Part shown: positions 15,283-30,248 of the stretch, piece by piece
Position numbering within the stretch: position 1 is the first letter of the stretch
Layout: each line of letters starts with the position of its first letter
Assembly (NCBI GenBank): GCA_044374225.1
Contig: JBILOX010000006.1
Span: 12,861-76,860, forward strand
Length of the DNA stretch: 64,000 nucleotides
Reading direction: 5' to 3'
DNA from: Crocinitomicaceae bacterium
Lineage (GTDB): Bacteria; Bacteroidota; Bacteroidia; Flavobacteriales_D; Crocinitomicaceae
Notes under the pieces: model-generated
What the model saw: only the letters and a program-made list of their open reading frames with translations
Told to the model about the DNA's origin: nothing
Databases searched by the model: none
Translations under genes and position numbers: made by a program

Positions 15283-15286
15283 GCTG

Positions 15287-15401: not shown

Positions 15402-16163
15402 ATGCGACTATATCTGAACGAAAAAGAATACATTGAAACGAATGAACCTTTGGATCTTTCCATTGGTTTGCAAGCAGGAGAAGGAAATTTAAGAGCTTGG
15501 TATGTGAATCCTCCAACTTTTGAACCTGTTCGTGCTAATGGTTTTATTGGAAGCGTAAAAGAGGGTGGTGGTGTAAACTTTCGCGATGTGTTTTTTAACC
15601 CACACGGACATGGTACGCATACAGAATGCCATGGTCACATTACACCTGAAGTTGTTTCCGTTAATCAAAAGTTACGCTCGTATTTTTTTAAAGCAAGAGT
15701 GGTTTCCGTTCAACCAGAAATTTTGGAAAATGGTGATGAATTAATAACAAAAAATCTGTTCGCGGAAAAAATTGACGATTCACCCTTCGAAGCTTTGATT
15801 ATTCGAACACTTCAAAATTCGTTTGATAAAACTTCCAAAAATTATTCTGACACCAATCCACCTTATTTGGACTTATCCGTTATGGAAATTATTGAAAAGC
15901 ATGATATTCAACATTTATTAGTCGATATGCCTTCTGTTGACAGGGAATCTGATGAGGGTAAATTGGCCTTTCACCACGCATTTTGGAATGTTCCCGAAAA
16001 TCCGAATGACAAAACGATCACTGAATTGATTTATGTTAAAGATGAAATCATAGATGGGTTATACATTTTAGAAATGCAAATGGCTCCTTTTGAGAATGAT
16101 GCGAGTCCTAGTCGCCCTGTTCTTTACAAAATACAGGGTAGGGAAAAGTTCCGCAGGATTTGA
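15402..16163 (+). CDS. Putative cyclase / arylformamidase-family protein
   Basis: 253 aa. The motif HGHGTHTECHGH resembles the HxGTHxDxPxH metal-binding signature of the putative cyclase (kynurenine formamidase-like) family. The last six codons and the TGA stop (EKFRRI*) are supplied by the palindromic repeat at 16145. Confidence 0.65.
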   Translation: MRLYLNEKEYIETNEPLDLSIGLQAGEGNLRAWYVNPPTFEPVRANGFIGSVKEGGGVNFRDVFFNPHGHGTHTECHGHITPEVVSVNQKLRSYFFKARVVSVQPEILENGDELITKNLFAEKIDDSPFEALIIRTLQNSFDKTSKNYSDTNPPYLDLSVMEIIEKHDIQHLLVDMPSVDRESDEGKLAFHHAFWNVPENPNDKTITELIYVKDEIIDGLYILEMQMAPFENDASPSRPVLYKIQGREKFRRI

Positions 16164-16197
16164 AAGTTCTGCAGGATTTGAAATCCTGCGGAACTTT
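16145..16197 (+). repeat. Palindromic junction repeat, copy 1 (one extra left half-site plus a ~29-35-nt palindrome followed by a T-run)
   Basis: aaagttccgcaggatttga / aagttctgcaggatttgaaatcctgcggaactttttt. Same family as the copies at 21725, 23257 and 24819. The stem plus T6 resembles an intrinsic terminator. Confidence 0.9.
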
Positions 16198-16831
16198 TTT
16201 CCACTATTTCTCCAACGTTCTAAATCTAAAAGTACTTTACGATTCATTTTCTATAATAATTTGGATGTTACATTACATTATTTATCCGTCTAAAAACACA
16301 AAGTAAAGGCAAATTATTTTTTTACTTCTGATTAGAAAAAAATCAAACCACAGAGTAAACGGAGGATGCAGAGATGAATTAACAACTAAAAAAGTAATTT
16401 TTTTTTGTTTGCTTCTTTTGTGAAAATGTATTTGATTCACTTTGACAAACTAAGGTATTTAAAAAAAAAATGTTTTTTTTCTCCTTTAACTCTTTGATCC
16501 TCTGCGGTAAAAACAACATAATCTTCTGTTTTATTTTTCTAATTATTGTAATCGAAAAGGATACAAGAAAATTGGTTCTCCCAATACTTATGTTAGAAAA
16601 TGAACAAAATTTCAAACTGCAAACTGATTGTACTACCTTGATTTTTCTTTGCACCGATGATGGAAAATTCTATCTGAGGTGGAATCTTGCGAGCCAGATG
16701 CGCGAGAAAGTAGAATTGTCACTAATGAAATGAATCTATTTCTTTTGGTTGAAAGCAATTGCAAAAAAAAATGTTTGCAAAATGTTTAATGTAATCGGGA
16801 CAAATCTCCTTCTCACTCTACTTAGTGGTAT

Positions 16832-17314
16832 ATGCATTTAGAAAAACTGAGAAAATTCATTCATTTGGTGGAGCGCAAGCAGACGGGAAAACCTGCTGAT
16901 GTTGCAAAGATATTAGGCGTTTCGGAGCGAATGATTTACAATTACACCAATTTTATTCGCAAAGAGTTGAATGCTCCCATTGTGTGGAATAACTTCAAGC
17001 AAAGCTATTTGTTTGCTGAAAGTGGCGTTTTGATTTGGAAATACAATAAAAATCATTCTATTGAACAAACAGATGCTGTATTTAATAACAAGCAACTGGC
17101 AACCTTGAACCGCATTTATTTGGGAATTAAACAAAACAATATCGTTTCTGCCGCTCAGTTTGCAAAGCAACTTGATATATCAGAACGCAGTTTTTTTAAT
17201 TATTTAAACGTGCTTAAAAACGAATTTCAGTGCCCTTTAATTTTTGACAAAAGCAGCAACAGCTACCAATTCAAACAAACTGGAAATTTGAACTTAAAAT
17301 GGCAAGCAAAATAA
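16832..17314 (+). CDS. Transcriptional regulator made of two tandem HTH modules
   Basis: 160 aa with a clear internal duplication: GKPADVAKILGVSERMIYNYTNFIRKELNAPIVWNNFKQSYLF versus VSAAQFAKQLDISERSFFNYLNVLKNEFQCPLIFDKSSNSYQF. The modules are HTH_11 / YafY-N-terminal-like. Confidence 0.75.
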   Translation: MHLEKLRKFIHLVERKQTGKPADVAKILGVSERMIYNYTNFIRKELNAPIVWNNFKQSYLFAESGVLIWKYNKNHSIEQTDAVFNNKQLATLNRIYLGIKQNNIVSAAQFAKQLDISERSFFNYLNVLKNEFQCPLIFDKSSNSYQFKQTGNLNLKWQAK

Positions 17315-17370
17315 TTTTTAGACTGCAAAGTGGTTGCAGTTGATTGATTTAAAATTGCAAAACCAAAAAA

Positions 17371-17425
17371 GACTTACTGCTGATTTCAGTAAGAGCGAAA
17401 CCCGAAAAGCTGGAGAGTAAGGGGG
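17371..17425 (+). repeat. Conserved 55-nt leader motif, copy 1 (possible cis-regulatory RNA)
   Basis: gacttactgctgatttcagtaagagcgaaacccgaaaagctggagagtaaggggg, about 90% identical to 27760-27815. It contains the hairpin cttactg/cagtaag and a second gtaag that could pair alternatively. It ends 25 nt upstream of the ATG at 17450. Confidence 0.7.
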
Positions 17426-17449
17426 AAATTGTTAATTAAATAAAAAAAG

Positions 17450-18001
17450 ATGCTGGAAATTTTACGAATTGCAATTAAGAATATTAACGAAAAATATTTT
17501 TTCAGAAAGGAACGTGATTTTTCTCACGAATTATACCATCAAATACGATTACAAAAGCTACCACTTGATACAGAAGTAACTTGCGAACATCCCAAAAGAA
17601 GATTCTCACATAGTGATACAATTTTTGAAGATCCGCTAGTTAAGCGTTATTTCTTCGCTGATGAAATCGATGAAGCAAAAAAGATTTTTCGATATCCAGA
17701 CTTGCTGATTCATGAGTTTGAAAATAGAACCCAACAATTGCTGGCGGTTGAAATAAAAAAACAATTTAATGTATCCCAAATTAAACGGGATTTGGCGAAA
17801 CTTATAGTTTATTGCAGAGGGCGCTTGAGATACAAAAACGGGGTGTTAATTATTACTCAACAAGCAAATACCAGACGAATAATTGAAGTGCGCGACATTA
17901 GAGAAATGCTTAGGAAATATCCCGAAGTAGAAATTTGGACGGTTTGTCCTGAAAGAATTGATGTTTATAATTCAATAACTATTAATAACCAAAATCAATA
18001 A
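17450..18001 (+). CDS. Hypothetical protein with PD-(D/E)xK nuclease-like motifs
   Basis: 183 aa. FRYPDLLIHEF ... LLAVEIKKQF gives D-(x17)-E-x-K with plausible beta-strand context, and an upstream acidic helix is present (FSHELYHQI). The stop lies 3 nt before the next start codon. Confidence 0.6.
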   Translation: MLEILRIAIKNINEKYFFRKERDFSHELYHQIRLQKLPLDTEVTCEHPKRRFSHSDTIFEDPLVKRYFFADEIDEAKKIFRYPDLLIHEFENRTQQLLAVEIKKQFNVSQIKRDLAKLIVYCRGRLRYKNGVLIITQQANTRRIIEVRDIREMLRKYPEVEIWTVCPERIDVYNSITINNQNQ

Positions 18002-18003
18002 CA

Positions 18004-21000
18004 ATGAAAAAAATAATTTTATTATTATTTACTGGAATATGTCTAATTTCTTTCGGTCAGCAGTTTAAAGCGGATTTAACTTTTAACACTGGAATTGGTT
18101 TTGACCAAGGTGTGACAGACATAATAACACAACAAGACGGAAAAATAATTGTTGGAGGAAGGTTTGAATTATATGGAATGAATACAACGTATACTAGACG
18201 TATAGCACGTTTGAATTCAAATGGTTCACTTGATAATACATTCAATACTGGATCTGGATTTAACAATGACGTAACATCTTTAGCCATTCAGACTGATGGT
18301 AAGATAGTTGTTGGAGGTGAGTTTTCATCTTTCAATGGAATAGCAAGAAATCGTATTGCACGTTTGAATAATGACGGATCACTTGATACCACGTTCAATC
18401 CGGGTTCAGGATTTTTTAACGGATTTGATTTCTGTAGTGTCTATTCTATTAGTATTCAGTCTGACGATAAGTTAATTGTTGGAGGTGGGTTTTCTTCTTT
18501 CAATGGGGTATCAAGAAAATGTATTGCACGTTTGAATAATGACGGTTCCCTTGATGCCACGTTCAATCCGGGTTCAGGATTTTTTAACCAATTTGATTTC
18601 TGTAATGTCTCTTCTACTAGTATTCAGTTTGATGGTAAGTTAATTGTTGGAGGTGGGTTTTCATCTTTCAATGGTATAGGAAGAAATAATATCTTACGTT
18701 TGAATAGTGATGGTTCACTGGATAATACATTCAATCCTGGTAGTGGATTTGATACAGAGGTGAGTTCCACTGCAATACAGTCTGATGGAAAATTAATTGT
18801 TGGAGGTGGGTTTACGTCATTCAACGGAATATCAAGAAACGGCATTACGCGATTGAATTCTGATGGATCAATAGACAATTCTTTTAATATTGGTTCTGGT
18901 TGCAGTGGATCAATACCTTCGGTTTTATCTTTAGCAATTCAGACAGATGGAAAGATTTTAATAGGTGGCTTATTTACATCATTCAATGGAATTAATATTA
19001 AAAGTATTGCAAGATTAAATATTAATGGAACTCTAGATAATTCATTCAATACAGGGACAGGCTTTATTGATTCAAATAACGGTCCTGGTTTTATTTCATC
19101 AATTTTAACATTATCTGATGATAAATTTGTTGCTACTGGTGAATATTCTAGTTTTAATGGAGTTAATAGAAATAAAATTTCAAGAATAATTGATTGTAGT
19201 TCTAATTCATCAAATAATATAGCAAATGTCACGGTTTGCGATTTAACAGTTATCCAAATTGGAAATCAAAATTATGCCACATCGAATAGCTATACATGGC
19301 CATTAAATGGAGAAACCTATTATGAGACTGGTCAATACAATACAAATATTACAATTAATTCTGTTGGATGTGATTCTGTCAATACACTAGACTTAAATTT
19401 TCATCAAAATTGGCGAGAAACTTCAATATTAGCCTGTTATTTAGATACTTTTTATATTGATGGATATGGTTATATTTCAAATCAGTCTGGATATTTCTTT
19501 GCTTATTCAAATCAACCGGCATTATACGGTTGTGACTCTTTGGTTATATATGATTTAACCTCAATTTCGCCTATTTATAACTCCTTTAATGTATCTATTT
19601 GTCCCGGTTCAAGTTATACTTGGAATGGTCAGCAGTATAATTCGGATGGTCAATTCCAACAAACTTTTTCAAGTTTAATAACTGGTTGTGATAGTATTGT
19701 AACTTTGAATCTTTCATATATCTTACCAGTTTATACATCATTTAACGTATCAATATGTCCTAGCTCAAGTTATATTTGGAATGGCCAACAATATAATTCA
19801 CCTGGGCAATATCAGCAATCTTTTTCAAGTTTCCTAACAGGTTGTGATAGTATTTCAACATTGAATCTTTCTTTTGTACCAAATAATTTCAACCCAACCT
19901 TCTCAAGCGCTCAACAATTGTACACTGCTCCTCCATTTGCTGTGCAGTTTACCAATTCAACGGCCAATCCTTCCAATTATTCATTTACATGGGATTTCGG
20001 AGATGGTACAACATTGGCATCTAACAATGCAACGGTTTTTCATCAGTATTTGTACAATGGACAATATACACTTTCATTGATTGCTACTAGCAACACAACA
20101 GGTTGTTCCGATACTACTACTCTTTCTGATTATATTTTCTGTACGGGTGGTGTGAGTTGTACGCATGTAGCAACAATTAATCAAACGAGTCCACAACAAG
20201 CGTGTCAAGGAACACCACTTTGGTTGTCGTGTAATAACGATCCTTCATTTACATACCAATGGAGAAGAAATGGTGTAACTATTCCAGGAAATAACAACGA
20301 CAGTTTGGCTGTAACACAATCAGGCACTTATTCTGTAATAATTTCGGTAAACAATTGTCCAATTACTTCAGGAGATGTGGTGGTAACAATTTTTTCTGCT
20401 CCATCAACTCCGATTATTACTTCTTCAGGAGCAATTCAACCATGTGTGGGAGGTTCGGTTACTTTGAATGCCGGAAGTTACACTACTTACAACTGGTCAA
20501 CAGGAGCAACAACACAAAGTATCAATGTTAACTCTTCAGGAACTTACTCGGTTTCTGTAACTGGAGCTAATGGTTGTTCGGCTTCTTCTACTCCATTTAA
20601 TGTAAATGCTTCTTTTGTTGCGCCTCCACAAGTTTGTATCGTTGGAATGGATTCATTAACAAACGAAAACAGAATCGTTTGGGAAAAACCGTTGACTTTG
20701 GGTATTGATTCATTCTACGTTTATAAAGAAAGTAATGTATCCAATGTTTACACAAAAATCGGCGCAACAGATTACAATCAATTAGCAGTTTTCTTAGATG
20801 CTAATTCAAATCCTGCTGTTCAAGCCTATCGTTATAAAATCTCAGCTTTAGATACATGTGGAACTGAATCAAACGTTGGAGATTTTCACAAAACCATACA
20901 CTTAACTATTAACCAAGGAGTTGGGAATTCTTGGAATTTAATTTGGAGTCATTATGAAGGTTTAACTTTTGGAAGTTATAGAATTTACAGGGGAACGAGC

Positions 21001-21432
21001 TTATCAAATATGGCTCTTTTGACAACTATCCAAAGTAATTTGAATTCATATACAGATTTAACTCCACCAACTGGACCAGTATTTTACCAAATTGAGGTTG
21101 TAAATCCTAATAATTGTGATCCAACTAAAATAATGAATTATGGTCTTTCAAAGTCTAATATTGTAGATAATGGAGTAAGTGGAATAAGTGAGGAAGTATT
21201 GTCAACAATAAATGTTTATCCGAACCCAACCAATGATAAATTTACTCTGAATGTTTCAAACGATTTGTTAGGAAAAGGATATGTAATCACTGATTTTTCT
21301 GGAAGAATAATTTCTCAAGGAAAAATTAATTCATTGATTCAAACCATAGATGTTCAGGAAATTTCTAAAGGTGCGTATTTCTTACAAATTGATAAATCAA
21401 CTACAAAAGCAATTAAAATTATCAAACAATAA
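18004..21432 (+). CDS. Large secreted multidomain protein: beta-propeller-type ~60-aa repeats, PKD domain, Ig/Fn3-like region, T9SS type A C-terminal sorting domain
   Basis: Signal peptide MKKIILLLFTGICLISFG. About 7 repeats of DGSLDxxFNxGSGF...IQxDGKxxVGGxFxSFNGxxRNxIxRLN (delta-60 / DUF5122-like). Two near-identical ~52-aa CxxSSYxWNGQQYNS...GCDSxxTLNLS repeats. PKD motif WDFGDGT. The C-terminus INVYPNPTNDKFTLNV...GAYFLQI...IKIIKQ is typical of Por/T9SS type A CTDs. Confidence 0.9.
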   Translation: MKKIILLLFTGICLISFGQQFKADLTFNTGIGFDQGVTDIITQQDGKIIVGGRFELYGMNTTYTRRIARLNSNGSLDNTFNTGSGFNNDVTSLAIQTDGKIVVGGEFSSFNGIARNRIARLNNDGSLDTTFNPGSGFFNGFDFCSVYSISIQSDDKLIVGGGFSSFNGVSRKCIARLNNDGSLDATFNPGSGFFNQFDFCNVSSTSIQFDGKLIVGGGFSSFNGIGRNNILRLNSDGSLDNTFNPGSGFDTEVSSTAIQSDGKLIVGGGFTSFNGISRNGITRLNSDGSIDNSFNIGSGCSGSIPSVLSLAIQTDGKILIGGLFTSFNGINIKSIARLNINGTLDNSFNTGTGFIDSNNGPGFISSILTLSDDKFVATGEYSSFNGVNRNKISRIIDCSSNSSNNIANVTVCDLTVIQIGNQNYATSNSYTWPLNGETYYETGQYNTNITINSVGCDSVNTLDLNFHQNWRETSILACYLDTFYIDGYGYISNQSGYFFAYSNQPALYGCDSLVIYDLTSISPIYNSFNVSICPGSSYTWNGQQYNSDGQFQQTFSSLITGCDSIVTLNLSYILPVYTSFNVSICPSSSYIWNGQQYNSPGQYQQSFSSFLTGCDSISTLNLSFVPNNFNPTFSSAQQLYTAPPFAVQFTNSTANPSNYSFTWDFGDGTTLASNNATVFHQYLYNGQYTLSLIATSNTTGCSDTTTLSDYIFCTGGVSCTHVATINQTSPQQACQGTPLWLSCNNDPSFTYQWRRNGVTIPGNNNDSLAVTQSGTYSVIISVNNCPITSGDVVVTIFSAPSTPIITSSGAIQPCVGGSVTLNAGSYTTYNWSTGATTQSINVNSSGTYSVSVTGANGCSASSTPFNVNASFVAPPQVCIVGMDSLTNENRIVWEKPLTLGIDSFYVYKESNVSNVYTKIGATDYNQLAVFLDANSNPAVQAYRYKISALDTCGTESNVGDFHKTIHLTINQGVGNSWNLIWSHYEGLTFGSYRIYRGTSLSNMALLTTIQSNLNSYTDLTPPTGPVFYQIEVVNPNNCDPTKIMNYGLSKSNIVDNGVSGISEEVLSTINVYPNPTNDKFTLNVSNDLLGKGYVITDFSGRIISQGKINSLIQTIDVQEISKGAYFLQIDKSTTKAIKIIKQ

Positions 21433-21456
21433 ACAATTTTTATTATAGTTTAGTTT

Positions 21457-21491
21457 AAATCCCATCAGCTTCGGTTGGTGGGATTTTTTTT
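21457..21491 (+). terminator. Intrinsic terminator (13-bp stem, UUCG loop, T-run) after the 1142-aa gene
   Basis: aaatcccatcagc-ttcg-gttggtgggattt followed by T8. This is the first part of the ~230-bp 3'-flank module. Confidence 0.75.
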
Positions 21492-21567
21492 ATATTGTTT
21501 TTTGAGAAATTTCAGATTATTTCAAAAACCTAGACCCCAATCAAAAAACAATTTCGATTATATAATG

Positions 21568-21684
21568 GATAAATGGTTTAAACCATTTTTTATATGTATT
21601 CATTTCATCATAGGGGAGGTTTTAAAACCTCCCCTATGATAAATCACCAAATAATTCAATAACCATTTCAATGGTTTGAGGTTG
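21568..21684 (+). repeat. Hairpin module, copy 1
   Basis: taaatggtttaaaccatt palindrome, then a perfect 17-bp-arm palindrome atcataggggaggtttt/aaaacctcccctatgat (21607-21640), then aaccatttcaatggtttgaggttg. The flanks are homologous to 23388-23505. Confidence 0.9.
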
Positions 21685-21724
21685 TTCATTTAATTCGTGC
21701 CAACGAAATACAGTTTCGGTTAAT

Positions 21725-21807
21725 AAAGTTCCGCAGGATTTGAAACGTAAAGTTCCGCAGGATTTCAAATGTAAAGTTCCGCAGGATTTGAAATCCTGCG
21801 GAACTTT
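21725..21807 (+). repeat. Palindromic junction repeat, copy 2 (two 24-bp left half-site units plus a 35-nt perfect palindrome)
   Basis: aaagttccgcaggatttgaaacgt | aaagttccgcaggatttcaaatgt | aaagttccgcaggattt-g-aaatcctgcggaacttt. Confidence 0.95.
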
Positions 21808-21829
21808 ACTGAAATCACAAAATAAATGT

Positions 21830-21837
21830 TATATTTG
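21830..21837 (+). promoter_or_regulatory. Candidate -7 box (TATATTTG) for the ATPase gene
   Basis: Matches TAnnTTTG. It lies 23 nt after the palindrome and 30 nt upstream of the ATG at 21868. Confidence 0.45.
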
Positions 21838-21867
21838 TGTAAATAATCACATTTTACATACTTATAT

Positions 21868-23178
21868 ATGGAAAGAGACCTACAACTTCAATTAATTAAA
21901 TGGAAAAACAAAACCGAGAGGTTACCATTAATTCTTCAAGGAGCGAGACAAGTTGGTAAAACCTATCTTATGCGTTGGTTTGGAGAAAATGCCTTTTCAC
22001 AATTTATTTACTTCAACTTTGACGAACGTCCAGAGTTAAAAGATTTTTTTCAAAAAAATAAAGATATACATCGAATCCTTGAGTCGTTTTCGCTTATCAG
22101 TGGTAAAGAAATAAATAGCGAAACATTGATAATTTTAGATGAAATCCAAGAATGTCCAGAGGCTTTGAATACCTTGAAATATTTTGCAGAACAAAAACCT
22201 GAAATTCCAATTATATGTGCTGGCTCACTTTTGGGTATATTGTTAAATTCAGGTAATTCTTTTCCTGTTGGGAAGGTTGAGTTTTTAACGCTTTATCCAA
22301 TGACATTTCGAGAAGTATTACCTAATTGGAGTAATTCTTTATCGAAGTATGTAGAGCAATTAGATGCACTAACTCCCATTCCTGACTATTTTTTTAATGA
22401 TTTATTACATCATTTCAAAAAATACATGATTACAGGAGGAATGCCGGCAATTGTTAAATCCTTTAACGACTCGAATACATTTGAAAATACAGACGAAACC
22501 TTAAACAATCTTATTCTTTCGTACAAAGGTGATTTTGCGAAACATCCAATTATGACAAACGTTGCTAAAATTGGCGAAGTGTTTAATTCGTTGCCCGCAC
22601 AACTTGCGAGAAAAAACAAAAAATTCATTTATCAATTAATTCGAACGGGAGCAAGAGCAAGAGAATATGAAGATGCAATTCAATGGTTGATAAATGCAGG
22701 ATTAGTATATCAAGTGAAATTAAATACAAAGCCATCATTACCACTAAGCGCTTATGAAGATCAAAGTGCATTTAAATTATATGCTTTAGACGTGGGAATT
22801 ATAAGAAACTTAGCTAAACTTTCACCAAGTGTTTTTTTAGAAGGAAATCGCCTTTTTTCTGAGTTTAAAGGTGCGTTGATAGAAAATTACATCCTACAAA
22901 GTTTGGTTGCTCAATTAAAAACTCCTCCTAGATATTGGACATCTGGAAATACTGCTGAAATTGACTTTTTAATTCAAATTGAAAATGAAATTATTCCAAT
23001 CGAAGTGAAGAGCGATGAAAATGTTAAAAGTAGAAGTCTCTCGTTATATAATGAAAAGTTTAATCCTTCATTAAGAATACGGTATTCATTGAAAAATTTA
23101 CAATATAGAGATGGCTTGTTGAATATTCCTCTTTTTCTAGCAGATTACACCATAGAAATGATTCGACGGGTTAAATAG
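21868..23178 (+). CDS. AAA+ ATPase with C-terminal DUF4143 / restriction-endonuclease-like domain
   Basis: 436 aa. Walker A is GARQVGKT and Walker B is LIILDEIQ. The C-terminal AEIDFLIQIENEIIPIEVKSDENVKS is typical of the AAA_14 + DUF4143 family. Confidence 0.85.
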   Translation: MERDLQLQLIKWKNKTERLPLILQGARQVGKTYLMRWFGENAFSQFIYFNFDERPELKDFFQKNKDIHRILESFSLISGKEINSETLIILDEIQECPEALNTLKYFAEQKPEIPIICAGSLLGILLNSGNSFPVGKVEFLTLYPMTFREVLPNWSNSLSKYVEQLDALTPIPDYFFNDLLHHFKKYMITGGMPAIVKSFNDSNTFENTDETLNNLILSYKGDFAKHPIMTNVAKIGEVFNSLPAQLARKNKKFIYQLIRTGARAREYEDAIQWLINAGLVYQVKLNTKPSLPLSAYEDQSAFKLYALDVGIIRNLAKLSPSVFLEGNRLFSEFKGALIENYILQSLVAQLKTPPRYWTSGNTAEIDFLIQIENEIIPIEVKSDENVKSRSLSLYNEKFNPSLRIRYSLKNLQYRDGLLNIPLFLADYTIEMIRRVK

Positions 23179-23256
23179 AAAATGAGCAAATGGTTTTTAA
23201 CGATTAAATTGACAGACAAAATAAAGGATTCAGGTAAGAAAAATTCTATTGAAATT

Positions 23257-23307
23257 AAAGTTCAGCAGGATTTGAAATCCTGCGGAACTTTCAAATCCTG
23301 CGGAACT
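23257..23307 (+). repeat. Palindromic junction repeat, copy 3 (palindrome followed by an extra right half-site, so inverted polarity relative to the other copies)
   Basis: aaagttcagcaggatttgaaatcctgcggaacttt + caaatcctgcggaact. Confidence 0.9.
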
Positions 23308-23337
23308 CCCGTTCGCTTCGGTTGGTGGGATTTTTTT
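23307..23337 (+). terminator. Degenerate copy of the UUCG-loop terminator hairpin
   Basis: tcccgttcgc-ttcg-gttggtggga followed by T7. Homologous to 21457-21491 but with more G-U pairs and mismatches. Confidence 0.4.
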
Positions 23338-23387
23338 GTCGCCAAATTTTGGTTAGTTGGTATTTTTTGGGAAATAAAAATTTTCGA

Positions 23388-23505
23388 GGGTAAATGGTTA
23401 AAACCATTTTATGTACGTGTGGTTTTCTCCTTAGGGTCGGATTTAAATCCGACCCTAAGGAGAAACACCAAAAAATTCATCAACCATTTCAATGGTTTGA
23501 GATTG
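23388..23505 (+). repeat. Hairpin module, copy 2
   Basis: taaatggttaaaaccatt, then a perfect 20-bp-arm palindrome ttctccttagggtcggattt/aaatccgaccctaaggagaa (23425-23464), then aaccatttcaatggtttgagattg. Same architecture as copy 1, but the central hairpin has a different sequence. Confidence 0.9.
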
Positions 23506-23610
23506 GAGTTTACTAAACTTGATATGAAATTATATTCAATAGTATATTGAGGAATCTAATTTCTTTGTAGGTAATGATAATGTTTTAGCAAAGAAATAAA
23601 ATCACAAAAA

Positions 23611-23628
23611 GTAAACAGATTTGTTTAC
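23611..23628 (+). promoter_or_regulatory. Candidate operator (inverted repeat GTAAACA-N4-TGTTTAC) upstream of the HigA-like gene
   Basis: Perfect 7-bp inverted repeat ending 16 nt upstream of the -7 box, roughly where a -33 element would be expected. This fits autoregulation by the HTH antitoxin. Confidence 0.4.
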
Positions 23629-23643
23629 TAAATAAAAATTTTT

Positions 23644-23651
23644 TACCTTTG
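23644..23651 (+). promoter_or_regulatory. Candidate -7 box (TACCTTTG) for the HigA-like/AbiEii-like pair
   Basis: Matches TAnnTTTG and lies 16 nt upstream of the ATG at 23668. Confidence 0.5.
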
Positions 23652-23667
23652 ATAAAAAACAAAGAAT

Positions 23668-24174
23668 ATGTTGCCTGAAATTTCAAAGATAAAAGGAATT
23701 CATCCTGGAGCTATTTTAAAAAGAGAACTCAAAAATCAAAGCCTGAAAAGTAGTGAATTAGCCAAATCAGTTAATGAACACAAGCAAACTATCAGTGCAA
23801 TTCTCAATGAAAAAAGAAGTGTTAATCCTGGACTTTCAATCAAACTGGCAAAACATTTCGGAGTAGCATCGGATTACTTTATGCATGTTCAAGCCAGTTA
23901 TGATATCCAAATAGAATTACAAAAAGACGCTGAAAAAAGTACCCCAGACCTCAAGAAGATACGGAAAATAGTATTTTGGGATACTGATTTCAACCTATTG
24001 GATTGGGAAAAACAAAAATCTGCTATTATCAAGCGTATCTTCGAAAGGGGAAATGATACAGAGATTAAGGAGATTATTTCTTTTTATGGACTTTCAACTG
24101 TGAAACAAACAATTGATGCTACTAAAAATAATTTTCTTCCTGCTTTCAATGAAAATGTAAAAAAGTACTTATAG
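23668..24174 (+). CDS. HigA-type XRE-HTH antitoxin-like protein fused to a C-terminal domain of unknown function
   Basis: The N-terminus IHPGAILKRELKNQSLKSSELAKSVNEHKQTISAILNEKRSVNPGLSIKLAKHFG is typical of HigA addiction-module antidotes. The C-terminal ~80 aa (IVFWDTDFNLLDWEKQKSAIIKRIFERGNDTEIKEIISFYG) is an extra domain. Confidence 0.75.
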   Translation: MLPEISKIKGIHPGAILKRELKNQSLKSSELAKSVNEHKQTISAILNEKRSVNPGLSIKLAKHFGVASDYFMHVQASYDIQIELQKDAEKSTPDLKKIRKIVFWDTDFNLLDWEKQKSAIIKRIFERGNDTEIKEIISFYGLSTVKQTIDATKNNFLPAFNENVKKYL

Positions 24175-24189
24175 ATAATACAGCATAAA

Positions 24190-24837
24190 TTGAATACACT
24201 TCACAGAAATACCGTTTCAGAATCGCTTTGGGTTTCATTAAATAAACTCATGAAAATTGAAGAATTAAAGAGTTTTCGATTGGTTGGTGGTACTTCTTTA
24301 AGTTTGCAAATTGGACACAGAATGTCCGTCGATATTGATTTGTTTACTGATGCACCTTATGATTCTATCGATTTCGACCGAATTGATGAAGTGATATGTT
24401 CAACCTTTCCAACAGTTGAAATGGGATATGGAGGAAATCACTCTATGGGTAAATCTTACTTTGTAGGAACATCAAAGGAAGACCTCGTCAAATTAGATTT
24501 TTTTTACACAGATTCATTTGTCTTTCCAGTACTTATTGAGCAGGATATTCGATTTGCAAGATTAGAAGAAATTGCGGCAATGAAACTAGAAGTGATAGGT
24601 AACAATGGAAGAAAAAAAGACTTTTGGGACCTTCATGAATTAATGGATCATTTTTCTCTAAATCAAATGATTGAATTTTATGAAAAACGCTATCCGTATA
24701 GCCTTACGAAAAAAGAAATAATATCCCAACTTACCTTTTTTGATAATGCAGACGAAGATTTTGATCCAATTTGCCTTCGTAATAAATATTGGGAGTTGAT
24801 AAAATTAGATTTTGAGGAAAAGTTCCGAAGGATTTGA
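24190..24837 (+). CDS. Nucleotidyltransferase, AbiEii/AbiGii toxin-like (DUF1814) family
   Basis: TTG start. FRLVGGTSLSLQIGHRMSVDIDLFTD matches the GGTAL...HR.S.DIDLF NTase signature of AbiEii-like proteins. The N-terminal LHRNTV segment argues for the TTG start rather than the internal ATG. The last six codons and the stop (EKFRRI*) come from the junction repeat. Confidence 0.75.
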   Translation: MNTLHRNTVSESLWVSLNKLMKIEELKSFRLVGGTSLSLQIGHRMSVDIDLFTDAPYDSIDFDRIDEVICSTFPTVEMGYGGNHSMGKSYFVGTSKEDLVKLDFFYTDSFVFPVLIEQDIRFARLEEIAAMKLEVIGNNGRKKDFWDLHELMDHFSLNQMIEFYEKRYPYSLTKKEIISQLTFFDNADEDFDPICLRNKYWELIKLDFEEKFRRI

Positions 24838-24925
24838 AACGCAAAGTTCCGAAGGATTTGAAACGCAAAGTTCAGCAGGATTTGAAACGTAAAGTTCCGC
24901 AGGATTTGAAATCCTGCGGAACTTT
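24819..24925 (+). repeat. Palindromic junction repeat, copy 4 (three 24-bp left half-site units plus a 35-nt perfect palindrome)
   Basis: aaagttccgaaggatttgaaacgc x2 | aaagttcagcaggatttgaaacgt | aaagttccgcaggattt-g-aaatcctgcggaacttt. Confidence 0.95.
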
Positions 24926-25039: not shown

Positions 25040-27388
25040 ATGCGAAGTTGGTTTCTTTTGTTTCTGTTTTTAATTGTTTCAGCTGGTTTCGCAACTGCCA
25101 CTGTTTCTGAGAAATTGTTTCTTACAAAGAAAAGTGAACTTACCTTTTTGATAAATAGAGGTAGCTTGAATACTGCACTTTTGAAATGCGAAAAGCTTTT
25201 AGCTAGTAATTTAAGTAAGGATCAGCGTTATCAAATTTTAACCACTCAATCTAAGATTTATTTTTGGACAGAAAATTTATATGAATTTAATAGGACAGCA
25301 AAATCGGCTTATGAAATAAAAAAGAAAAATTTGGCAATTTACAAAGCGTATTATTATTCGCAGAAAGCAGCATTTTTTCATTATCATATTTTAGCTGATT
25401 CTGCTGTCTACTATTCTGACAAATCAATAGAACTACTTAGTAAAAACTGGCAATTTCGAACAAAAGTACCTTTTCATTTTATTTATCAAATTTATGGAAC
25501 GGTTTTTCTTTATAGAAATATAAATGGAAAATTTTATTCAAACTCTGAATTTGATTGCAATAATAGATTACCCTTGATTTTAAACTATCAGGATTCTGCT
25601 TTAAAGCATATCAATCAAGTCCCGCATTTTAAACAGGAGGAAGCAATTATACATCGATCAAAAGGAAATCGGATAATGGATCTTGTAGGTTATAGTGTTC
25701 GTAACAGCAAATCGGATTTTAATAATTATGCTTTTCAGATAAGTAAAGCAAACCAAGCAATTAATGAATATCGAATGGCTTTAAAGGTTTTAGACAAAAA
25801 TGAACATACCTTATCAAATGGAATCAAAAGTTTAATTGCTTTGGCTTTTTATTGTACAAATAGAGAGCATGAAGGGGATGCGATTTTGTGGCCAATTATT
25901 AAGAAGTTGAAGAAAGATAAAATAAAGGATATAAATTCGGAGAATATCCAATTATTGAATGTCCTGCAAACATTTTCTCACAGCATTATTTCTAAAAATA
26001 AATTTGATTCAAGAATCTATTCCGTTATCCGAATTTATAAATCCCTACGTGATGATTGGTATTGGTATTTAATTTCAAAAAACAAAAATTACCTCGATTC
26101 ATACGGAGAATCTCCTACATCCATGCTTTCCATTATCTATATTTGGCTCAACAATTTAGAAATTGAAAATTTAAATTTAAATTATAATTTGAGGTACAGT
26201 GCACTCGATAATTACATTTATTATAGTAAAACCTTAGATTTTCTTGTTAACAAAAATGGTCTTTCATTATCAAAAAAAGTGGAGATAAAAGCTTCAATCT
26301 TAACACTTCTTAATCTTTATAAAATCCAAAAGAAACTTAGTGAAAAAGATGCGGTAATGGTTCAGATTTTTGCAGCAATGAAAAAAGAGAAATATCTCTT
26401 AATTACAAAAAAAGCGCTTTATGTAGATACTTTTAAAAGACTACCATTAACACATTATACAAGTTTACAAATTGATGGATTAACGGAATTTAAAAGAAAA
26501 GGATTTGAAAATTTTTCAAGTTCTCCATTTTGCTATATTTTAAAAAAAAATAAAATTTCAAAGCTGTATGTAGCAATTGATATTCATGAAAATTTTGATT
26601 TGATGATTATGGACACATTAGGTGATTCATTTGAAGAATTAAACTATTTTAAAAGTAAAATTAATGTTATTAAAGTATATAATCCAATTGATTTTTTTTC
26701 AATATATCCTTCAACTGATTTACTAATTAAAGAAAACATAGCTCCATTTTATACTGACATTAATAGTAAAGATAGATTGCCTTTTTCACAATCGATTTTT
26801 ACTAATTTCAATAGAAAAAGAATAAAACCTTTACGATTTATAAATTTAAATGATAACGGAATAGCTCATATTATTGGTCACGGAAATTTGAAATTGGAAA
26901 AAGACAGACAATCTTATACCAACTATTTGCAATCAAATCAATTGAAAAAAGATTTAATAGGAAACCAGCGAATTAAAACTGACTTATTTATTTTAAATTT
27001 ATGTTTTGGTGCATACAAAAGAAGTATGTTTTATCCAGATCGTGATTTACAAAATCAACTAATTTCTAAAGGTGCTAAAGCTGTAATTGCCTCACCTTAC
27101 CAAACTATAGATCAAAGTTCAGCCTATATTTTTGAAAAATTTTATCACTATCTTTTCAAAGGAGAAACAGTAGAAGATGCATTACAGCTAGCAAAATTAG
27201 ACTATTTAAAAACGCATACAGGAATGGAGGCTCATCCACAATATTGGTCAACCTACGAACTTACCTCCAACGTCAAAGACCTACGTTTAGCCCTTGATCC
27301 AATACCAGATAAATCGTGGCAAGCGTATTTAGTGCTATTAGTTTTGATTGCAATAGTGTTGTGGTTTTATTTGTATTGGGAGGATTGA
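25040..27388 (+). CDS. CHAT-domain (caspase-like) protease with N-terminal signal peptide, helical-repeat region and C-terminal TM anchor
   Basis: 782 aa. Signal-like MRSWFLLFLFLIVSAGFATA. CHAT His/Cys dyad context GIAHIIGHGN ... TDLFILNLCFGAY, followed by GAKAVIASPYQTIDQSSAYIFEKFYHYLFKGETVEDALQLAKLDYLK. C-terminal hydrophobic WQAYLVLLVLIAIVLWFYLYW. Confidence 0.8.
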   Translation: MRSWFLLFLFLIVSAGFATATVSEKLFLTKKSELTFLINRGSLNTALLKCEKLLASNLSKDQRYQILTTQSKIYFWTENLYEFNRTAKSAYEIKKKNLAIYKAYYYSQKAAFFHYHILADSAVYYSDKSIELLSKNWQFRTKVPFHFIYQIYGTVFLYRNINGKFYSNSEFDCNNRLPLILNYQDSALKHINQVPHFKQEEAIIHRSKGNRIMDLVGYSVRNSKSDFNNYAFQISKANQAINEYRMALKVLDKNEHTLSNGIKSLIALAFYCTNREHEGDAILWPIIKKLKKDKIKDINSENIQLLNVLQTFSHSIISKNKFDSRIYSVIRIYKSLRDDWYWYLISKNKNYLDSYGESPTSMLSIIYIWLNNLEIENLNLNYNLRYSALDNYIYYSKTLDFLVNKNGLSLSKKVEIKASILTLLNLYKIQKKLSEKDAVMVQIFAAMKKEKYLLITKKALYVDTFKRLPLTHYTSLQIDGLTEFKRKGFENFSSSPFCYILKKNKISKLYVAIDIHENFDLMIMDTLGDSFEELNYFKSKINVIKVYNPIDFFSIYPSTDLLIKENIAPFYTDINSKDRLPFSQSIFTNFNRKRIKPLRFINLNDNGIAHIIGHGNLKLEKDRQSYTNYLQSNQLKKDLIGNQRIKTDLFILNLCFGAYKRSMFYPDRDLQNQLISKGAKAVIASPYQTIDQSSAYIFEKFYHYLFKGETVEDALQLAKLDYLKTHTGMEAHPQYWSTYELTSNVKDLRLALDPIPDKSWQAYLVLLVLIAIVLWFYLYWED

Positions 27389-27445: not shown

Positions 27446-27550
27446 ATACCAATTTACTTGTTAAATGACGTAATTGAAAATCTATCTGGTATAATGCCGA
27501 GTTAGTTTTCAACGAGTATTCTACACGACAATTGAAAACAACTTCGGTAT
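27446..27550 (+). mobile_element. 105-bp MITE-like element (family A), copy 1
   Basis: ataccaatttacttgttaaatgacg...gaaaacaacttcggtat. Its reverse complement is identical (105/105, checked base by base) to 34809-34913. Short imperfect terminal inverted repeats (ATACC...GGTAT) and an internal gttttcaa/ttgaaaac hairpin. No coding capacity. Confidence 0.9.
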
Positions 27551-27759: not shown

Positions 27760-27815
27760 GACTTACTACTGATTTTTCAGTAAGAGCGAAACTCGTAAAG
27801 CTGGAGTGTAAGGAG
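27760..27815 (+). repeat. Conserved 55-nt leader motif, copy 2
   Basis: gacttactactgatttttcagtaagagcgaaactcgtaaagctggagtgtaaggag. It ends 39 nt upstream of the ATG at 27854. A partial third copy (ctggagtgtgggaa) lies at 30051-30064. Confidence 0.7.
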
Positions 27816-27853: not shown

Positions 27854-28528
27854 ATGAAAAAAACAATTTTAATTCTAGGTGTCGTGTTCCTGGGTGGAAT
27901 AACATTAAACAGCTGTGGAGGATCAGAAGAAAAGAATTCAGCTGAAAACAAAACAAAAAAAGGCACTGCAACAGTGAAAAATGAAAAAGTAGAAGAAGAG
28001 TCAAAACCAATAGTTAGTTTGTCAAAAAAAGAGGCCCTCGATCGAATGAAAGCTTTTTTAAAAGATAATCGAAAAAAATACAGTGATTTCGGCGAGGTAC
28101 AGGACATGTCTGCAGTTGGAGGTAATTATTCTAAAGATGGGGCACTCGACTATTTTTATACAGTAGATTTCTATCCCGGTGGTGATTTTATCTATCCTTC
28201 TCATTTTTTCTATGAATCCGATCAGGATAAAATTCGTGAGCTTTCTATAAATAAGGCTACCGATTTTATGAAAAGCATCGACGTAAAAGAAATTATAGAA
28301 GGAAAGCTCATCGGATCGGCTAATTTGTGGAATGCATTTAGTGGAGAGCATGTTGCTTGGAGATCCGTGAATGCTGAGTTTACAATTGATGGAAACAAAA
28401 TATATTTCGATAATAAATACATCTCAAAATTTAAAAAAGGAGAAAAGGAAATTGCTAGTGAATTAAAAAAAATGGAAGAAGATATGATGAATGAATCAGA
28501 TGCATATAACTCTGAATTAGCAGAATAA
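27854..28528 (+). CDS. Hypothetical lipoprotein
   Basis: 224 aa. Lipobox-like LGGITLNSC followed by a charged low-complexity linker (GGSEEKNSAENKTKKG). Confidence 0.75.
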   Translation: MKKTILILGVVFLGGITLNSCGGSEEKNSAENKTKKGTATVKNEKVEEESKPIVSLSKKEALDRMKAFLKDNRKKYSDFGEVQDMSAVGGNYSKDGALDYFYTVDFYPGGDFIYPSHFFYESDQDKIRELSINKATDFMKSIDVKEIIEGKLIGSANLWNAFSGEHVAWRSVNAEFTIDGNKIYFDNKYISKFKKGEKEIASELKKMEEDMMNESDAYNSELAE

Positions 28529-28554
28529 ATTATTAAATATTTAAAAAAGTGAAT

Positions 28555-28896
28555 ATGAAATACATTATTACACTTACATTTTTCCTTTCTACACAACTAT
28601 TGTTTTCTCAAATGGAAAATGGCAGCTATAAATTCTCAAATAACAATATTACATTGGAGTTTATTATCGAAGATGATGGTTGGGTTATTTCATCTGGGAA
28701 AGTATCAAATAACCAATCGAAAATAAGCTTTGTGGGAAAAGGTGAATATCGCAGCAAAGATGACTACGAATGGTATGAATTTCAAACGAACGAATGTAAT
28801 TACTCTTTTAGTCTCCCAACAAATAAATTGACGCTAGAAATATTCGACTGTAAAAACGGAAGTAAATCAACTGAAGTTATTTTAGAAAGAAAATAA
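28555..28896 (+). CDS. Small secreted hypothetical protein
   Basis: An ATG at 28555 (MKYIITLTFFLSTQLLFSQ signal peptide) is preferred over the GTG at 28549 used in the ORF track. Confidence 0.65.
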   Translation: MKYIITLTFFLSTQLLFSQMENGSYKFSNNNITLEFIIEDDGWVISSGKVSNNQSKISFVGKGEYRSKDDYEWYEFQTNECNYSFSLPTNKLTLEIFDCKNGSKSTEVILERK

Positions 28897-28972
28897 TTTT
28901 CAAATAGCTTAAGTTAAAAAATAGAGTATACCGAAAATCTTTAAGAGTAGGTAAAATATCAAAAATGAAAAA

Positions 28973-29482
28973 ATGAAAAAAACGATTACAATGATTGGCG
29001 CACTAATGTTGCTTTCAATTTCAATGGTAAGTTGCAGCGACGCTAATTCAGCTGAAAAAACTGACAAAGGGGCTGTTAATGAAAAGAAGGATACAACAGC
29101 TACGAAGGAAACAAATGTTGAAGTTGAAGATAAAATTGAGCCAGGAAAAATACTAAAAGTCACATTGACTTATTCTGAATCTACGCTTGACAACGAAGAT
29201 TTAGGAAATCTAACAGAAACTCTTAAAAATGGTTCTGAATTATACTTGAATGGATGCAATACTCAAAAAATTAAAAACATTAAGATTGAAGGGTCAGGTA
29301 ACCATTTGACACTGTCTATAAAATCATCTGATGGTAAAGTTATTTTTGAGAAAAAGGATTTTTCAATCGACAAATCGATCACATTAACAGAAAAAGATAA
29401 AATTACTCTTGGTTCTATTACAATCACTCAAGAAAACAAAAACTTGTTCAAAAATGCAACTTTAATTAGTGGATGTAATTAG
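28973..29482 (+). CDS. Hypothetical lipoprotein
   Basis: 169 aa. MKKTITMIGALMLLSISMVSC lipobox, then a linker SDANSAEKTDKG similar to that of the 27854 product. Confidence 0.75.
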   Translation: MKKTITMIGALMLLSISMVSCSDANSAEKTDKGAVNEKKDTTATKETNVEVEDKIEPGKILKVTLTYSESTLDNEDLGNLTETLKNGSELYLNGCNTQKIKNIKIEGSGNHLTLSIKSSDGKVIFEKKDFSIDKSITLTEKDKITLGSITITQENKNLFKNATLISGCN

Positions 29483-29526
29483 ACATTCAAAAATGAATTT
29501 AATTCAAATTCTAGCAAAAACAAAAT

Positions 29527-29928
29527 ATGAAAAAAATAATTAGCTCAATCGTAACGATTTATTGTTGTTTTTTGGCTTTTGGTCAAAGCAACATTGGTAA
29601 AGCTTCAACTGAAAATAATTCGGTTACAAATCAATTACTACAAGGGAAATGGCAAGCAGTTGACGACAAAAAGAATTTCTTGGTGTTTGACAAAAATGAA
29701 AGAAAGGAAACTGGAGATGGGTCTACTTGGGATTCTGAAACGTATGTTTTATCGAACAAATGCATGAATGAAAGCGATTTGGAAAACGGTATTGAACCTG
29801 AAAAAGATAAATATATTTCTTGTGCTGAGTCAGATTTGTGCTGGTATATTGTTTTAATAAATAAGGATTTCTTGACGCTCAGTTATATGGGAAGGGGAAA
29901 TTCTTTGGAATACAAAAGAGTAAAATAA
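29527..29928 (+). CDS. Small secreted hypothetical protein
   Basis: 133 aa. Signal peptide MKKIISSIVTIYCCFLAFGQ. No recognisable family. Confidence 0.65.
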   Translation: MKKIISSIVTIYCCFLAFGQSNIGKASTENNSVTNQLLQGKWQAVDDKKNFLVFDKNERKETGDGSTWDSETYVLSNKCMNESDLENGIEPEKDKYISCAESDLCWYIVLINKDFLTLSYMGRGNSLEYKRVK

Positions 29929-29962
29929 TTTAAAGAATTCATTTTAGTAAGTAGGTTAGGTT

Positions 29963-30112
29963 AAATCTCATCGGTGTGAGTTGGTAGGATTTATTCGTAT
30001 TGTTTTTTTTGAGAAATTTTAGTTTATTTCAAAGACCAAAACCCCTGAATCTGGAGTGTGGGAATTAATAAGTTGAAAAGAACAATAATTAATTTTCAAC
30101 TAGGTTTGAGGT
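29963..30112 (+). repeat. 3'-flank module, copy 3 (partial and diverged)
   Basis: Hairpin aaatctcatcgg...ttggtaggattt plus a spacer attgttttttttgagaaattttagtttatttcaaagaccaaaacccc homologous to 21457-21538. This is followed by the hairpin gttgaaaa-N13-ttttcaac and taggtttgaggt (compare ggtttgaggttg in copy 1). Confidence 0.75.
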
Positions 30113-30198
30113 CCAAAATACGTACTATTTTTCAATGTAATTTAGCTGATTGGCTAATCCAAGAATAGCTCTACAAATAACTTCTGCGCGAGAAAAAA

Positions 30199-30248
30199 TA
30201 AGACTGTTTCAAAAGCCTAGATGAGAAATGGGTTTTGCAACGGTCTTA
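30199..30248 (+). mobile_element. MITE-like element family B, short (50-bp) form
   Basis: taagactgtttcaaaag...gggttttgcaacggtctta. The termini are inverted repeats (TAAGACTGTT / AACGGTCTTA) and are shared with 32173-32295. Confidence 0.8.

Follow-up and report, generated by a model that had tools for sequence, protein, structure and literature searches.

A perfect palindrome with arm arrays at rearrangement breakpoints of a variable island of accessory and defence genes from a Crocinitomicaceae-like freshwater bacterium

The stretch of DNA analysed here, hereafter the window, comprises 64,000 nucleotides of contig JBILOX010000006.1 from a Crocinitomicaceae bacterium (assembly GCA_044374225.1) and contains, between a cyclase gene and holA, a genuine variable island with accessory and defence content of a freshwater Crocinitomicaceae-like organism. 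Four sites of this island, J1 to J4, carry a perfect 35-bp palindrome extended by repeated copies of its arms. In the reading that we prefer, to which we assign a probability of about 0.55, the palindromes and their arm arrays are low-copy, terminator-derived hairpins, fragile and recombinogenic, which mark the scars of rearrangements in a subset of the lineages of this clade. The window was compared with 44 loci from relatives (L001-L044), using as anchors the cyclase and a clade-restricted helix-turn-helix (HTH) protein; the comparison sequences were metagenome contigs or metagenome-assembled genomes (MAGs) throughout, and genes were called with Pfam, NCBIfam and PADLOC. A previous sequence-only reading had suggested a cassette-capture or recombination system reminiscent of integron arrays and, as a cautious alternative, a terminator or repetitive extragenic palindrome (REP) family concentrated in a variable region; the comparison with the 44 loci favours the latter.

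Anatomy of the palindromic arrays and breakpoints within them

The repeat is built from complementary 17-nt arms, left (L) and right (R), and its array form can be described as (left arm)n, the 35-bp palindrome and (right arm)m (Table 1). The arm AAAGTTCCGCAGGATTT occurs in 15 copies within 16145-24925 and nowhere else in the 64 kb, and the 21-nt unit AAAGTTCCGCAGGATTTGAAA, when up to two mismatches were allowed, likewise yielded 15 matches, all at 16145-24925, against 0.01 in shuffled sequences. The structured repeats pointed out by the sequence-only reading are real, including its terminator module, and so is a 118-nt three-hairpin element. The one further match to the unit, at 51887, has three mismatches and falls in coding sequence; a weak arm match at 51891, also in coding sequence, was set aside as being at chance level. 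The innermost L and R form a perfect 17+1+17 palindrome, AAAGTTCCGCAGGATTT-G-AAATCCTGCGGAACTTT, whose single central base is either G or C irrespective of the context. All four arrays gave strong hairpins as single-stranded DNA and as RNA (z = -3.5 to -8), with no bulges in the inner stem of the predicted folds, and the whole 64 kb contains perfect hairpins with stems of 11 bp or more only at 21607, 21771, 23424 and 24891. All copies of the palindrome sit 0-10 nt past stop codons. The units are preceded by CGT, TGT, CGC, AAT or GGA and followed by variable bases; none of the arrays shows a target-site duplication, and the arms abut with a 1-nt centre. The J2 array recurs in L014 with 98.8% identity. 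A likeness of the palindrome centre to the T-arm of tRNAs was considered and dropped as unsupported.

Several breakpoints between relatives map exactly into these arrays. The cyclase gene takes its last eight codons and its TGA stop from the array J1, and its product ends in ...KIQGREKFRRI* where its homologues end in ...KIQKKG*, the gene's own last three codons having been lost. On the other side of J1, a stub of an AAA_14 gene on the opposite strand is truncated exactly at the palindrome; its 16 residues share 14/16 identities with the N-terminus of a gene of L041 and L042 (tblastn), and the DNA homology (91%) to the AAA_14 region of these loci begins at 16198. In L041 and L042 this second AAA_14 gene is intact (452 aa; 7962-9320 in L041) and lies between the LptD gene with its palindrome and the HTH gene. 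Judged from these alignments, J1 is a scar that fuses the truncated cyclase gene to codon 16 of a lost AAA_14 gene.

Other breakpoints concern whole blocks. The order HigA-AbiEii, array, AAA, array, CHAT is found in L004, as opposed to AAA, array, HigA-AbiEii, array, CHAT in the window, and, since each gene has kept its unique flanks, the exchange maps within the arrays, although this swap is seen on one contig only. The 3' array of L004 consists of three 14-nt units and one 24-nt unit followed by L and R, and the same arrangement occurs in the independent contig L043, where a terminator T, its tail X, an H element (the three-hairpin element) and a palindrome stand upstream of AAA in place of AbiEii. 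A gene for an outer-membrane-like protein is inserted on the opposite strand in L001, L002 and L044; in L001 and L002 it is located between two modules made of H and palindrome, of which the window and L043 have one, while the single junction visible in L044, upstream of AAA, is a decayed palindrome. The 5' end of the AAA cassette is set at the right arm whichever of three different neighbours lies upstream (window and L043; L004; L001 and L044).

Metagenome contigs could in principle be misjoined through shared repeats, and the block shuffling would then be an assembly artefact. Many contigs indeed end at or near arrays (L043 and the short contigs), and the order AbiEii-AAA-CHAT appears in L004 alone, in a comparison made entirely of metagenome contigs and MAGs. 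We regard this explanation as very improbable, given that the J1 junction is shared by the independent assemblies L023, L025 and L033 (four assemblies in all), with identical flanks in three independent assemblies and, in L033, with a diverged island interior. Furthermore, the unusual 3' array of L004 was recovered in L043 from a different study, the outer-membrane-like insertion in three loci, the AAA-free state in L029-31, and the order LptD-AAA(-)-HTH in both L041 and L042. Every array has its own arm pattern, and exact shared stretches do not exceed ~45 nt.

The arms behave as an unstable repeat. Spacings of 14, 16, 18, 19, 21 and 24 nt are seen, with one to five left and one to four right arms per junction; number and spacing vary from junction to junction, orthologous ones included, and on inspection of the sequences unit boundaries fall on AAA or GAAATC microhomology. 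In the palindrome variant at 2210-2270 of L043, the compensatory pair GTTGCGCAGG/CCTGCGCAAC (x2) extends over all three arms, a concerted change that constitutes direct evidence of arm homogenisation within an array. In L044 the palindrome has decayed beside an AAA gene that is 98% identical to that of the window. Slippage and template switching at palindromes and quasipalindromes are known to leave such signatures (PMC7202029, PMC8794818), and template switching has been documented both to create and to perfect hairpins (PMC8794818, PMC7202029).

Palindrome-free relatives, terminator likeness and a proposed mechanism

Relatives without the repeat provide the decisive control. L029-32, which are the closest by the HTH marker (95% at the amino acid level), and L036-40 have no palindrome and show a similar layout, with the HTH gene, variable slot and secreted-protein genes, cassette blocks and, where the contig reaches that far, the CHAT gene; in L029-31 the order from HigA-AbiEii to CHAT is the same as in the window. 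Compared with L029, the window has an extra segment composed of palindrome, AAA, palindrome, T' (a second terminator T) and H, and the alignments overlap within H, leaving no palindrome in L029. Additional breakpoints away from palindromes lie in H elements, in the leader element (~17423-17430), in the gene for a type IX secretion system (T9SS) cargo protein (~19881) and at the CHAT C-terminus. Since the islands of these relatives are similar without palindromes and other breakpoints lie elsewhere, the palindromes are not required for the modularity of the island; the idea that blocks break at the repeats holds for several junctions, while others break in H, in the leader or inside genes.

The same relatives suggest where the palindrome may have come from. 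The AbiEii-CHAT junction of L029 and L031 is a stretch of 77 nt, GAGGAAAAATTCCGCAGG-TAAA-GTTGGTGGGATTTTTT, which forms an imperfect hairpin followed by a T-run; its left arm equals the repeat arm with one mismatch and encodes the native C-terminus EEKFRR*, and its right arm is the one found in the terminator T. A proto-arm, AAAGTTCCGTAGGGTAAGTTT, was found 3' of LptD in L036, and a degenerate right arm at the island head of L029. With regard to the features of an intrinsic terminator, stable stems are present in all copies and six T's directly follow J1, in addition to the T-run of the L029 junction. It is plausible, as far as these sequence features indicate, that the element acts as an intrinsic terminator. 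A simple terminator scan listed the T element at 21457 and none of the four palindromes.

In the course of events that we favour, ordinary terminators of the island would have been perfected into a long palindrome in some lineages, and this palindrome would have spread to a few junctions by recombination. Being located just past stop codons, the hairpins probably still terminate or stabilise transcripts. As long perfect palindromes they would be unstable during replication and repair, so that slippage and template switching at short AAA or GAAATC microhomologies could duplicate arms, keep their complementarity and flip the central base, while the repair of breaks or misalignments at the hairpins might join them, through homology or microhomology, with other copies or with unrelated DNA. 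The outcome would be the reordering, insertion, deletion or truncation of blocks in an already modular island, with scars left at the palindromes, which would be one kind of recombinogenic site next to the remaining shared modules (T, X, H and leader). The anatomy, the breakpoints, the joint change and decay of arms and the islands without palindromes are observed, whereas the mechanism, replication slippage and host recombination without a dedicated enzyme, is inferred.

Some observations weigh against this reading. Only three T's stand behind the stem at J2-J4. The inner 35-mer is identical in sequences whose flanks are only 82-92% identical (window, L001-L004, L007), and a 25-nt core of it recurs in unrelated Bacteroidota contigs; because selection on structure alone would allow more drift, recognition of the sequence by a protein is possible, although this conservation is partly a matter of ascertainment, since the searches required exact 21-24-mers. 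The constant boundary of the AAA cassette behind three neighbours would also fit a site-specific mechanism.

These observations bring into consideration a dedicated enzyme encoded elsewhere, either a Xer-like tyrosine recombinase, of the kind that serves the pdif modules of Acinetobacter, or a hairpin-specific HUH enzyme of the REP/RAYT type, which would use the palindromes as recombination sites and move the blocks as cassettes. To this possibility we give a sizeable minority chance. It would account for the AAA cassette keeping the same arm ends in its different contexts, for the outer-membrane-like cassette being flanked by two palindromes where the empty sites have one, for the two-block swap of L004 in which the flanks travel with the genes, for the conservation of the inner 35-mer beyond that of its flanks, and for a copy number that is low and clustered, unlike that of generic REPs. 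However, the palindrome-free relatives have a similar layout and structural variation of their own, the AAA indel with respect to L029 breaks in H elements with no palindrome remaining, and the swap of L004 rests on its single contig. Arm number and spacing appear unconstrained, arms decay or co-vary, and those of J1 are fused to truncated coding sequences, which a precise site-specific exchange would not do. In addition, 17-nt arms with a 1-nt centre are unlike dif-type sites, the GTAG/CGTC tag is absent (PMC3733652), and no candidate enzyme was detected in the scanned ORFs of any locus. A bolder form of the same idea takes the 35-bp palindrome as the recognition site of a chromosomal, trans-acting tyrosine recombinase, HUH enzyme or structure-specific nuclease that would move defence and toxin-antitoxin (TA) blocks, as a chromosomal Bacteroidota counterpart of the Acinetobacter pdif modules, the half-site arrays being footprints of imprecise events and the palindrome-free lineages having lost the enzyme; we hold this to be unlikely. 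If a dedicated enzyme were found, the repeats would define a new cassette system; without one, they are an instructive case of ordinary repeat-driven plasticity.

The arms might instead be binding sites for a DNA-binding protein, such as the tandem-HTH regulator of the island or a nucleoid protein, with the arrays tuning the expression of the blocks and the rearrangements being incidental. Every lineage has the HTH gene at the head of its island and the gene is confined to the clade, the motif GGATTT-N-AAATCC is common to the palindrome and to the type B hairpin of the H element, and the core is conserved at the sequence level. Nevertheless, lineages with an HTH gene at 84-95% identity lack the palindrome, the arm spacing of 14-24 nt keeps no fixed helical phase, and copies follow unrelated housekeeping genes at loci without homology to the island head or to the HTH gene, all of which makes this role improbable. 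Terminator-derived hairpins that break and recombine remain, in our opinion, the better account of scars and arm arrays alike.

Copies beyond the window and comparison with known systems

The palindrome family is rare and low-copy, as follows from the small number of loci obtained in species-genome, JGI and viral scans. Scanning one genome per species (185,579 species) for an exact 24-mer yielded six loci in five MAGs, among them one Crocinitomicaceae MAG and two labelled Chitinophaga pinensis, whose stretches are 87-94% identical to the island of the window; one MAG holds three exact sites, on contigs of 427 kb and 246 kb, and these copy counts rest on exact matching and on incomplete MAGs. 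A 21-mer scan of JGI metagenomes gave nine loci, and no exact copy of the palindrome was found in viral contigs. Outside the island, L003 and L007 carry a lone palindrome flanked by genes for a MORN-repeat protein and an aldose epimerase, kept in both relatives. The 25-nt core, TCCGCAGGATTTSAAATCCTGCGGA, lies directly 3' of genes for an FAD oxidase, a 2-hydroxyacid dehydrogenase and a methyltransferase in unrelated Bacteroidota contigs, and its hairpin is often found between convergent genes, both of which indicate terminator positions. Copies of the repeat thus follow core genes, as the sequence-only reading expected of generic terminator or REP elements, but synteny of the island across relatives is incomplete, and some of their indels are bounded by repeats. 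The unrelated Bacteroidota MAG L006 has a pair of small uncharacterised genes (146 and 173 aa; 2668-3850) between copies of the core hairpin, as a segment inserted between the FAD-oxidase gene and purL. No recombinase was found in the scanned ORFs adjoining the copies in L001-L004, L006, L010 and L015, and a literature search combining Crocinitomicaceae and palindromic repeats returned nothing.

The likeness to integrons, or to clusters of attC sites lacking integrase (CALINs), comes from the co-oriented blocks of the window, each ending in a palindromic element, and from a content rich in TA and defence genes. An attC site is, however, an imperfect palindrome of 57-141 bp with R'' (RYYYAAC) and R' (GTTRRRY) boxes and extrahelical bases, while the junctions described here are perfect 17+1+17 palindromes, identical at all junctions, in which the R'', L'', L' and R' boxes and the extrahelical bases are absent; the departure from the attC consensus had already been recognised from the sequence. 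Integron cassettes are co-oriented and mostly promoterless, with one attC at each 3' end, whereas these blocks have their own terminators and probable promoters, occur in the opposite orientation in relatives, and in L029-31 have junctions without the element. As for the IntI tyrosine recombinase, which CALINs lack by definition, no Phage_integrase match was obtained in the scanned ORFs of the window. The integron-like reading is contradicted by this lack of attC structure and integrase, by relatives whose cassettes are not co-oriented, by the palindrome-free layout, by the AAA indel lying in H and by the occurrence of the core after housekeeping genes. For genome scans, this implies a warning that co-oriented blocks with palindromic junctions can mimic an integron-type array.

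REPs and bacterial interspersed mosaic elements (BIMEs) resemble the element in several respects: they are palindromes of the 20-40-bp class (here 35 nt) located just after genes and sometimes clustered, and they are rearrangement hot spots and possibly terminators or mRNA stabilisers. REPs are imperfect and bear, at one end, a conserved tag that reads GTAG or CGTC (PMC3733652); the palindrome described here is perfect and has no such tag. In contrast to the high, genome-wide copy number of REPs and BIMEs, only four sites are present in the 64 kb, all within 9 kb, with a handful per genome, and their arrays are made of half-sites in the same orientation and not of alternating whole REPs. The ORFs scanned in the window and in the neighbouring loci included no gene for a REP-associated tyrosine transposase (RAYT; Y1 HUH).

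The pdif modules of Acinetobacter (PMC6449649, PMC13141974) offer another parallel, with blocks that include toxin-antitoxin pairs, short dyad-symmetric sites and no recombinase nearby, and with blocks found in differing orders and contexts. These sites measure 28 bp, with an 11-6-11 organisation, and are related to dif; the element described here is 17-1-17 and chromosomal and apparently shows no resemblance to dif, and its sites are dispensable in close relatives, variable in arm number and fused to truncated genes. Work on template switching at quasipalindromes and on palindrome fragility (PMC7202029, PMC8794818) shares with our case the imperfect terminator hairpins that were apparently perfected, the concerted change of arms, the inversion of the central base, the tandem arm duplications at microhomologies and the deletions ending at a hairpin. 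That work concerns a mutational process, whereas here a repeat product has spread to several junctions and persists across lineages. Miniature inverted-repeat transposable elements (MITEs), in turn, have terminal inverted repeats, a body of 50-500 bp and target-site duplications; here the arms abut and no duplication is present. Of the known systems, REP-type extragenic palindromes, taken together with palindrome instability, come closest to the behaviour of the element.

These observations illustrate, concretely and at the level of sequence, the remodelling of an accessory and defence island in uncultured freshwater Bacteroidota. A few short structured repeats are the places where blocks encoding a PDC-S01 ATPase, an AbiEii pair, CHAT, Fic, MNT-HepT or an outer-membrane-like protein are exchanged, and one family of these repeats is a perfect palindrome that can be seen breaking, duplicating its arms and fusing to truncated genes. 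The scars and the arm arrays are unusually clear, although the underlying process is an ordinary one.

Island layout, gene content and other features of the window

Table 1. Coordinates of the island genes, palindromic arrays and other repeats, given as positions in the 64-kb window.
Feature	Position	Strand	Remarks
Cyclase/arylformamidase gene	ends within J1 (16145-16197)	+	Pfam
Array J1	16145-16197		L-L-R, 18-nt spacing
AAA_14/DUF4143 remnant (PDC-S01-like)	16198-16592	-	upstream region and first 16 codons (16247-16200, MNRKVLLDLERWRNSG)
Island head	16593-17430	+	tandem-HTH regulator (16832-17314) and leader-like element (17295-17430)
Variable slot gene, 183 aa	17450-18001	+	PD-(D/E)xK-like motif only
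T9SS cargo protein, DUF5122/PKD/Por_Secre_tail	18004-21432	+	Pfam
Canonical intrinsic terminator T with conserved 55-nt tail X	21457-21545	+	also in L001, L002, L029-31, L043
H element, copy 1	21566-21685	+	three hairpins, type A central hairpin
Array J2	21725-21807		L-L-L-R, 24-nt spacing
AAA_14/DUF4143 ATPase cassette	21868-23178	+	Pfam; PADLOC candidate PDC-S01, 3e-165
Array J3	23257-23309		L-R-R, 18-nt spacing; runs into T'
Terminator T'	23304-23337	+	second copy of the T module
H element, copy 2	23387-23506	+	three hairpins, type B central hairpin
HTH_3+DUF6922 antitoxin-like gene and AbiEii nucleotidyltransferase toxin gene	23668-24837	+	Pfam
Array J4	24819-24925		L-L-L-L-R, 24-nt spacing
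CHAT-domain protein	25040-27388	+	Pfam
105-bp repeat	27446-27550		inverted copy at 34809-34913, 100% identical; partial copy at 63011-63069
Four small secreted proteins or lipoproteins	27854-29928	+	seen in the window's lineage only
Degenerate T/X module	29963-30063	+	right edge of the island
holA	right flank of the island		Pfam

The start of the island is constant across lineages and consists of the HTH gene and the leader-like element, followed by a variable small gene and by a variable gene for a T9SS cargo or another secreted protein. The later blocks change, with the outer-membrane-like protein, AAA_14, HigA-AbiEii and CHAT, and then Fic, MNT-HepT or small lipoproteins. The flanks also differ: on the left, a cyclase (window, L033), an S51 peptidase (L002, L029) or LptD (L001, L036-42), and on the right, holA (window) or an extracytoplasmic function (ECF) sigma factor gene (L004, L030, L031, L036, L038), the right-hand 34 kb of the window being occupied by housekeeping genes. 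The island head is 85-95% identical in L001, L002, L029, L033 and L036; its homology starts at ~16593 in most lineages (16734 in L036) and stops at ~17423-17469, and the tandem-HTH family comprises 39 proteins, all from this clade. Between L033 and the window identity reaches 99% up to 16527 and only 86-92% inside the island, a contrast that indicates allelic replacement. Opposite-strand cassettes in relatives include the outer-membrane-like gene and the second AAA_14 gene (L001, L002, L041, L044). The 350-aa protein of the L001/L002 cassette was considered as a recombinase and rejected, as it has a signal peptide and an outer-membrane-like sequence and no match in Pfam or NCBIfam.

Most of the gene calls made from the sequence alone were confirmed by Pfam, NCBIfam and PADLOC. 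The 183-aa slot protein is a putative PD-(D/E)xK protein by a visible PDLL...VEIKK motif only, and no match to this protein was obtained in Pfam, NCBIfam, PADLOC or PDB; the slot is occupied by an unrelated 191-aa gene in L001 and by a 114-aa gene in L002. Since the 183-aa protein is not conserved in these two loci, it cannot belong to a shared mechanism, and its candidacy as a junction nuclease was dropped. Of the four small proteins taken for lipoproteins, two have a lipobox and two a plain signal peptide; their position is held by Fic or MNT-HepT in relatives. The T9SS cargo gene is a mosaic, with a C-terminal part (PKD and Por_Secre_tail) 82-90% identical in L029, L031 and L033 and an N-terminal passenger that is unrelated between lineages, the joint falling at 19881-19883 in the three blastn comparisons. 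The stop codon of the AbiEii gene lies inside the first repeat unit of J4, and the CHAT gene was found in each lineage whose contig reaches that far.

All the island genes judged to be real lie on the plus strand in the window, in agreement with the plus-strand orientation of the twelve ORFs initially considered credible. The 87-aa ORF at 16470-16733 is probably not a gene, as it straddles ~16593, where homology to most relatives starts, and neither, probably, is the 122-aa ORF at 23182-23550, which reads through the J3 array, the T' terminator and an H element. The reported absence of a recombinase was also upheld: no recombinase or transposase domain was found in the 36 ORFs of 150 aa or more that were scanned in the window, a set that covers every such ORF within the island and near it and leaves aside 146-11266, 11975-12478, 63353-63841 and the amidase-like 47127-48308. 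A search of the window for tRNA and tmRNA genes detected none, and the region is accordingly not a tRNA-linked integration site.

Among the other repeat families, the H element (~118 nt) is more widespread than the palindrome. Its conserved flanks contain the mini-hairpins AAATGGTTNAAACCATTT and AACCATTTCAATGGTT, and its central perfect hairpin comes in three or more unrelated sequence types (A, B and C) of similar shape. Further copies were located in L001 (298-422 and 1667-1784), L002 (359-479 and 1776-1894) and L029 (6490-6607), and the H element of L044 has lost its centre through a deletion between AACCATTT repeats. H may represent a small RNA, an element of the MITE type or one more palindrome family. 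The 105-bp repeat is real but, given its inverted and partial copies farther along the window (34809-34913 and 63011), not specific to the island. The inverted pair, 7.3 kb apart, brackets the lipoprotein genes, holA and genes for an rsmE-like RNA methyltransferase and a truA-like pseudouridine synthase, and could allow inversion of the bracketed segment. A motif near 30220 is not island-specific either, as more copies are present at 32267 and 58640.

No Rfam match was obtained in the whole window at the gathering threshold, and an E-value search of 15-31 kb gave only spurious microRNA-type hairpin matches on the palindromes together with a near-threshold DUF805b match elsewhere. Matches to this cis-regulatory motif, at 28921-28953, 17392-17423 and 27783-27813, precede slot genes or genes for small secreted proteins or lipoproteins, the best scoring 35.4 bits against a gathering score of 35.6 and the second 25 bits. 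The element at 17295-17430 is kept 3' of the HTH gene in all lineages and coincides with a synteny breakpoint.

To the left of the island, the GC skew changes sign across ~11000-15400, with a cumulative minimum near 15 kb; gene orientation flips at glyS(-)/cyclase(+), and the giant plus-strand ORF 146-11266 shows negative skew. This segment could be an origin-proximal region or an inversion boundary; a replication origin near 15 kb was considered and not retained, DnaA-box-like sites not being enriched (22 found, 22 expected). On the opposite side, a 14-bp perfect tandem repeat, GGATTACTGATTGC, is present in three copies at 33863-33904, in the intergenic region that follows the ORF 33274-33855.

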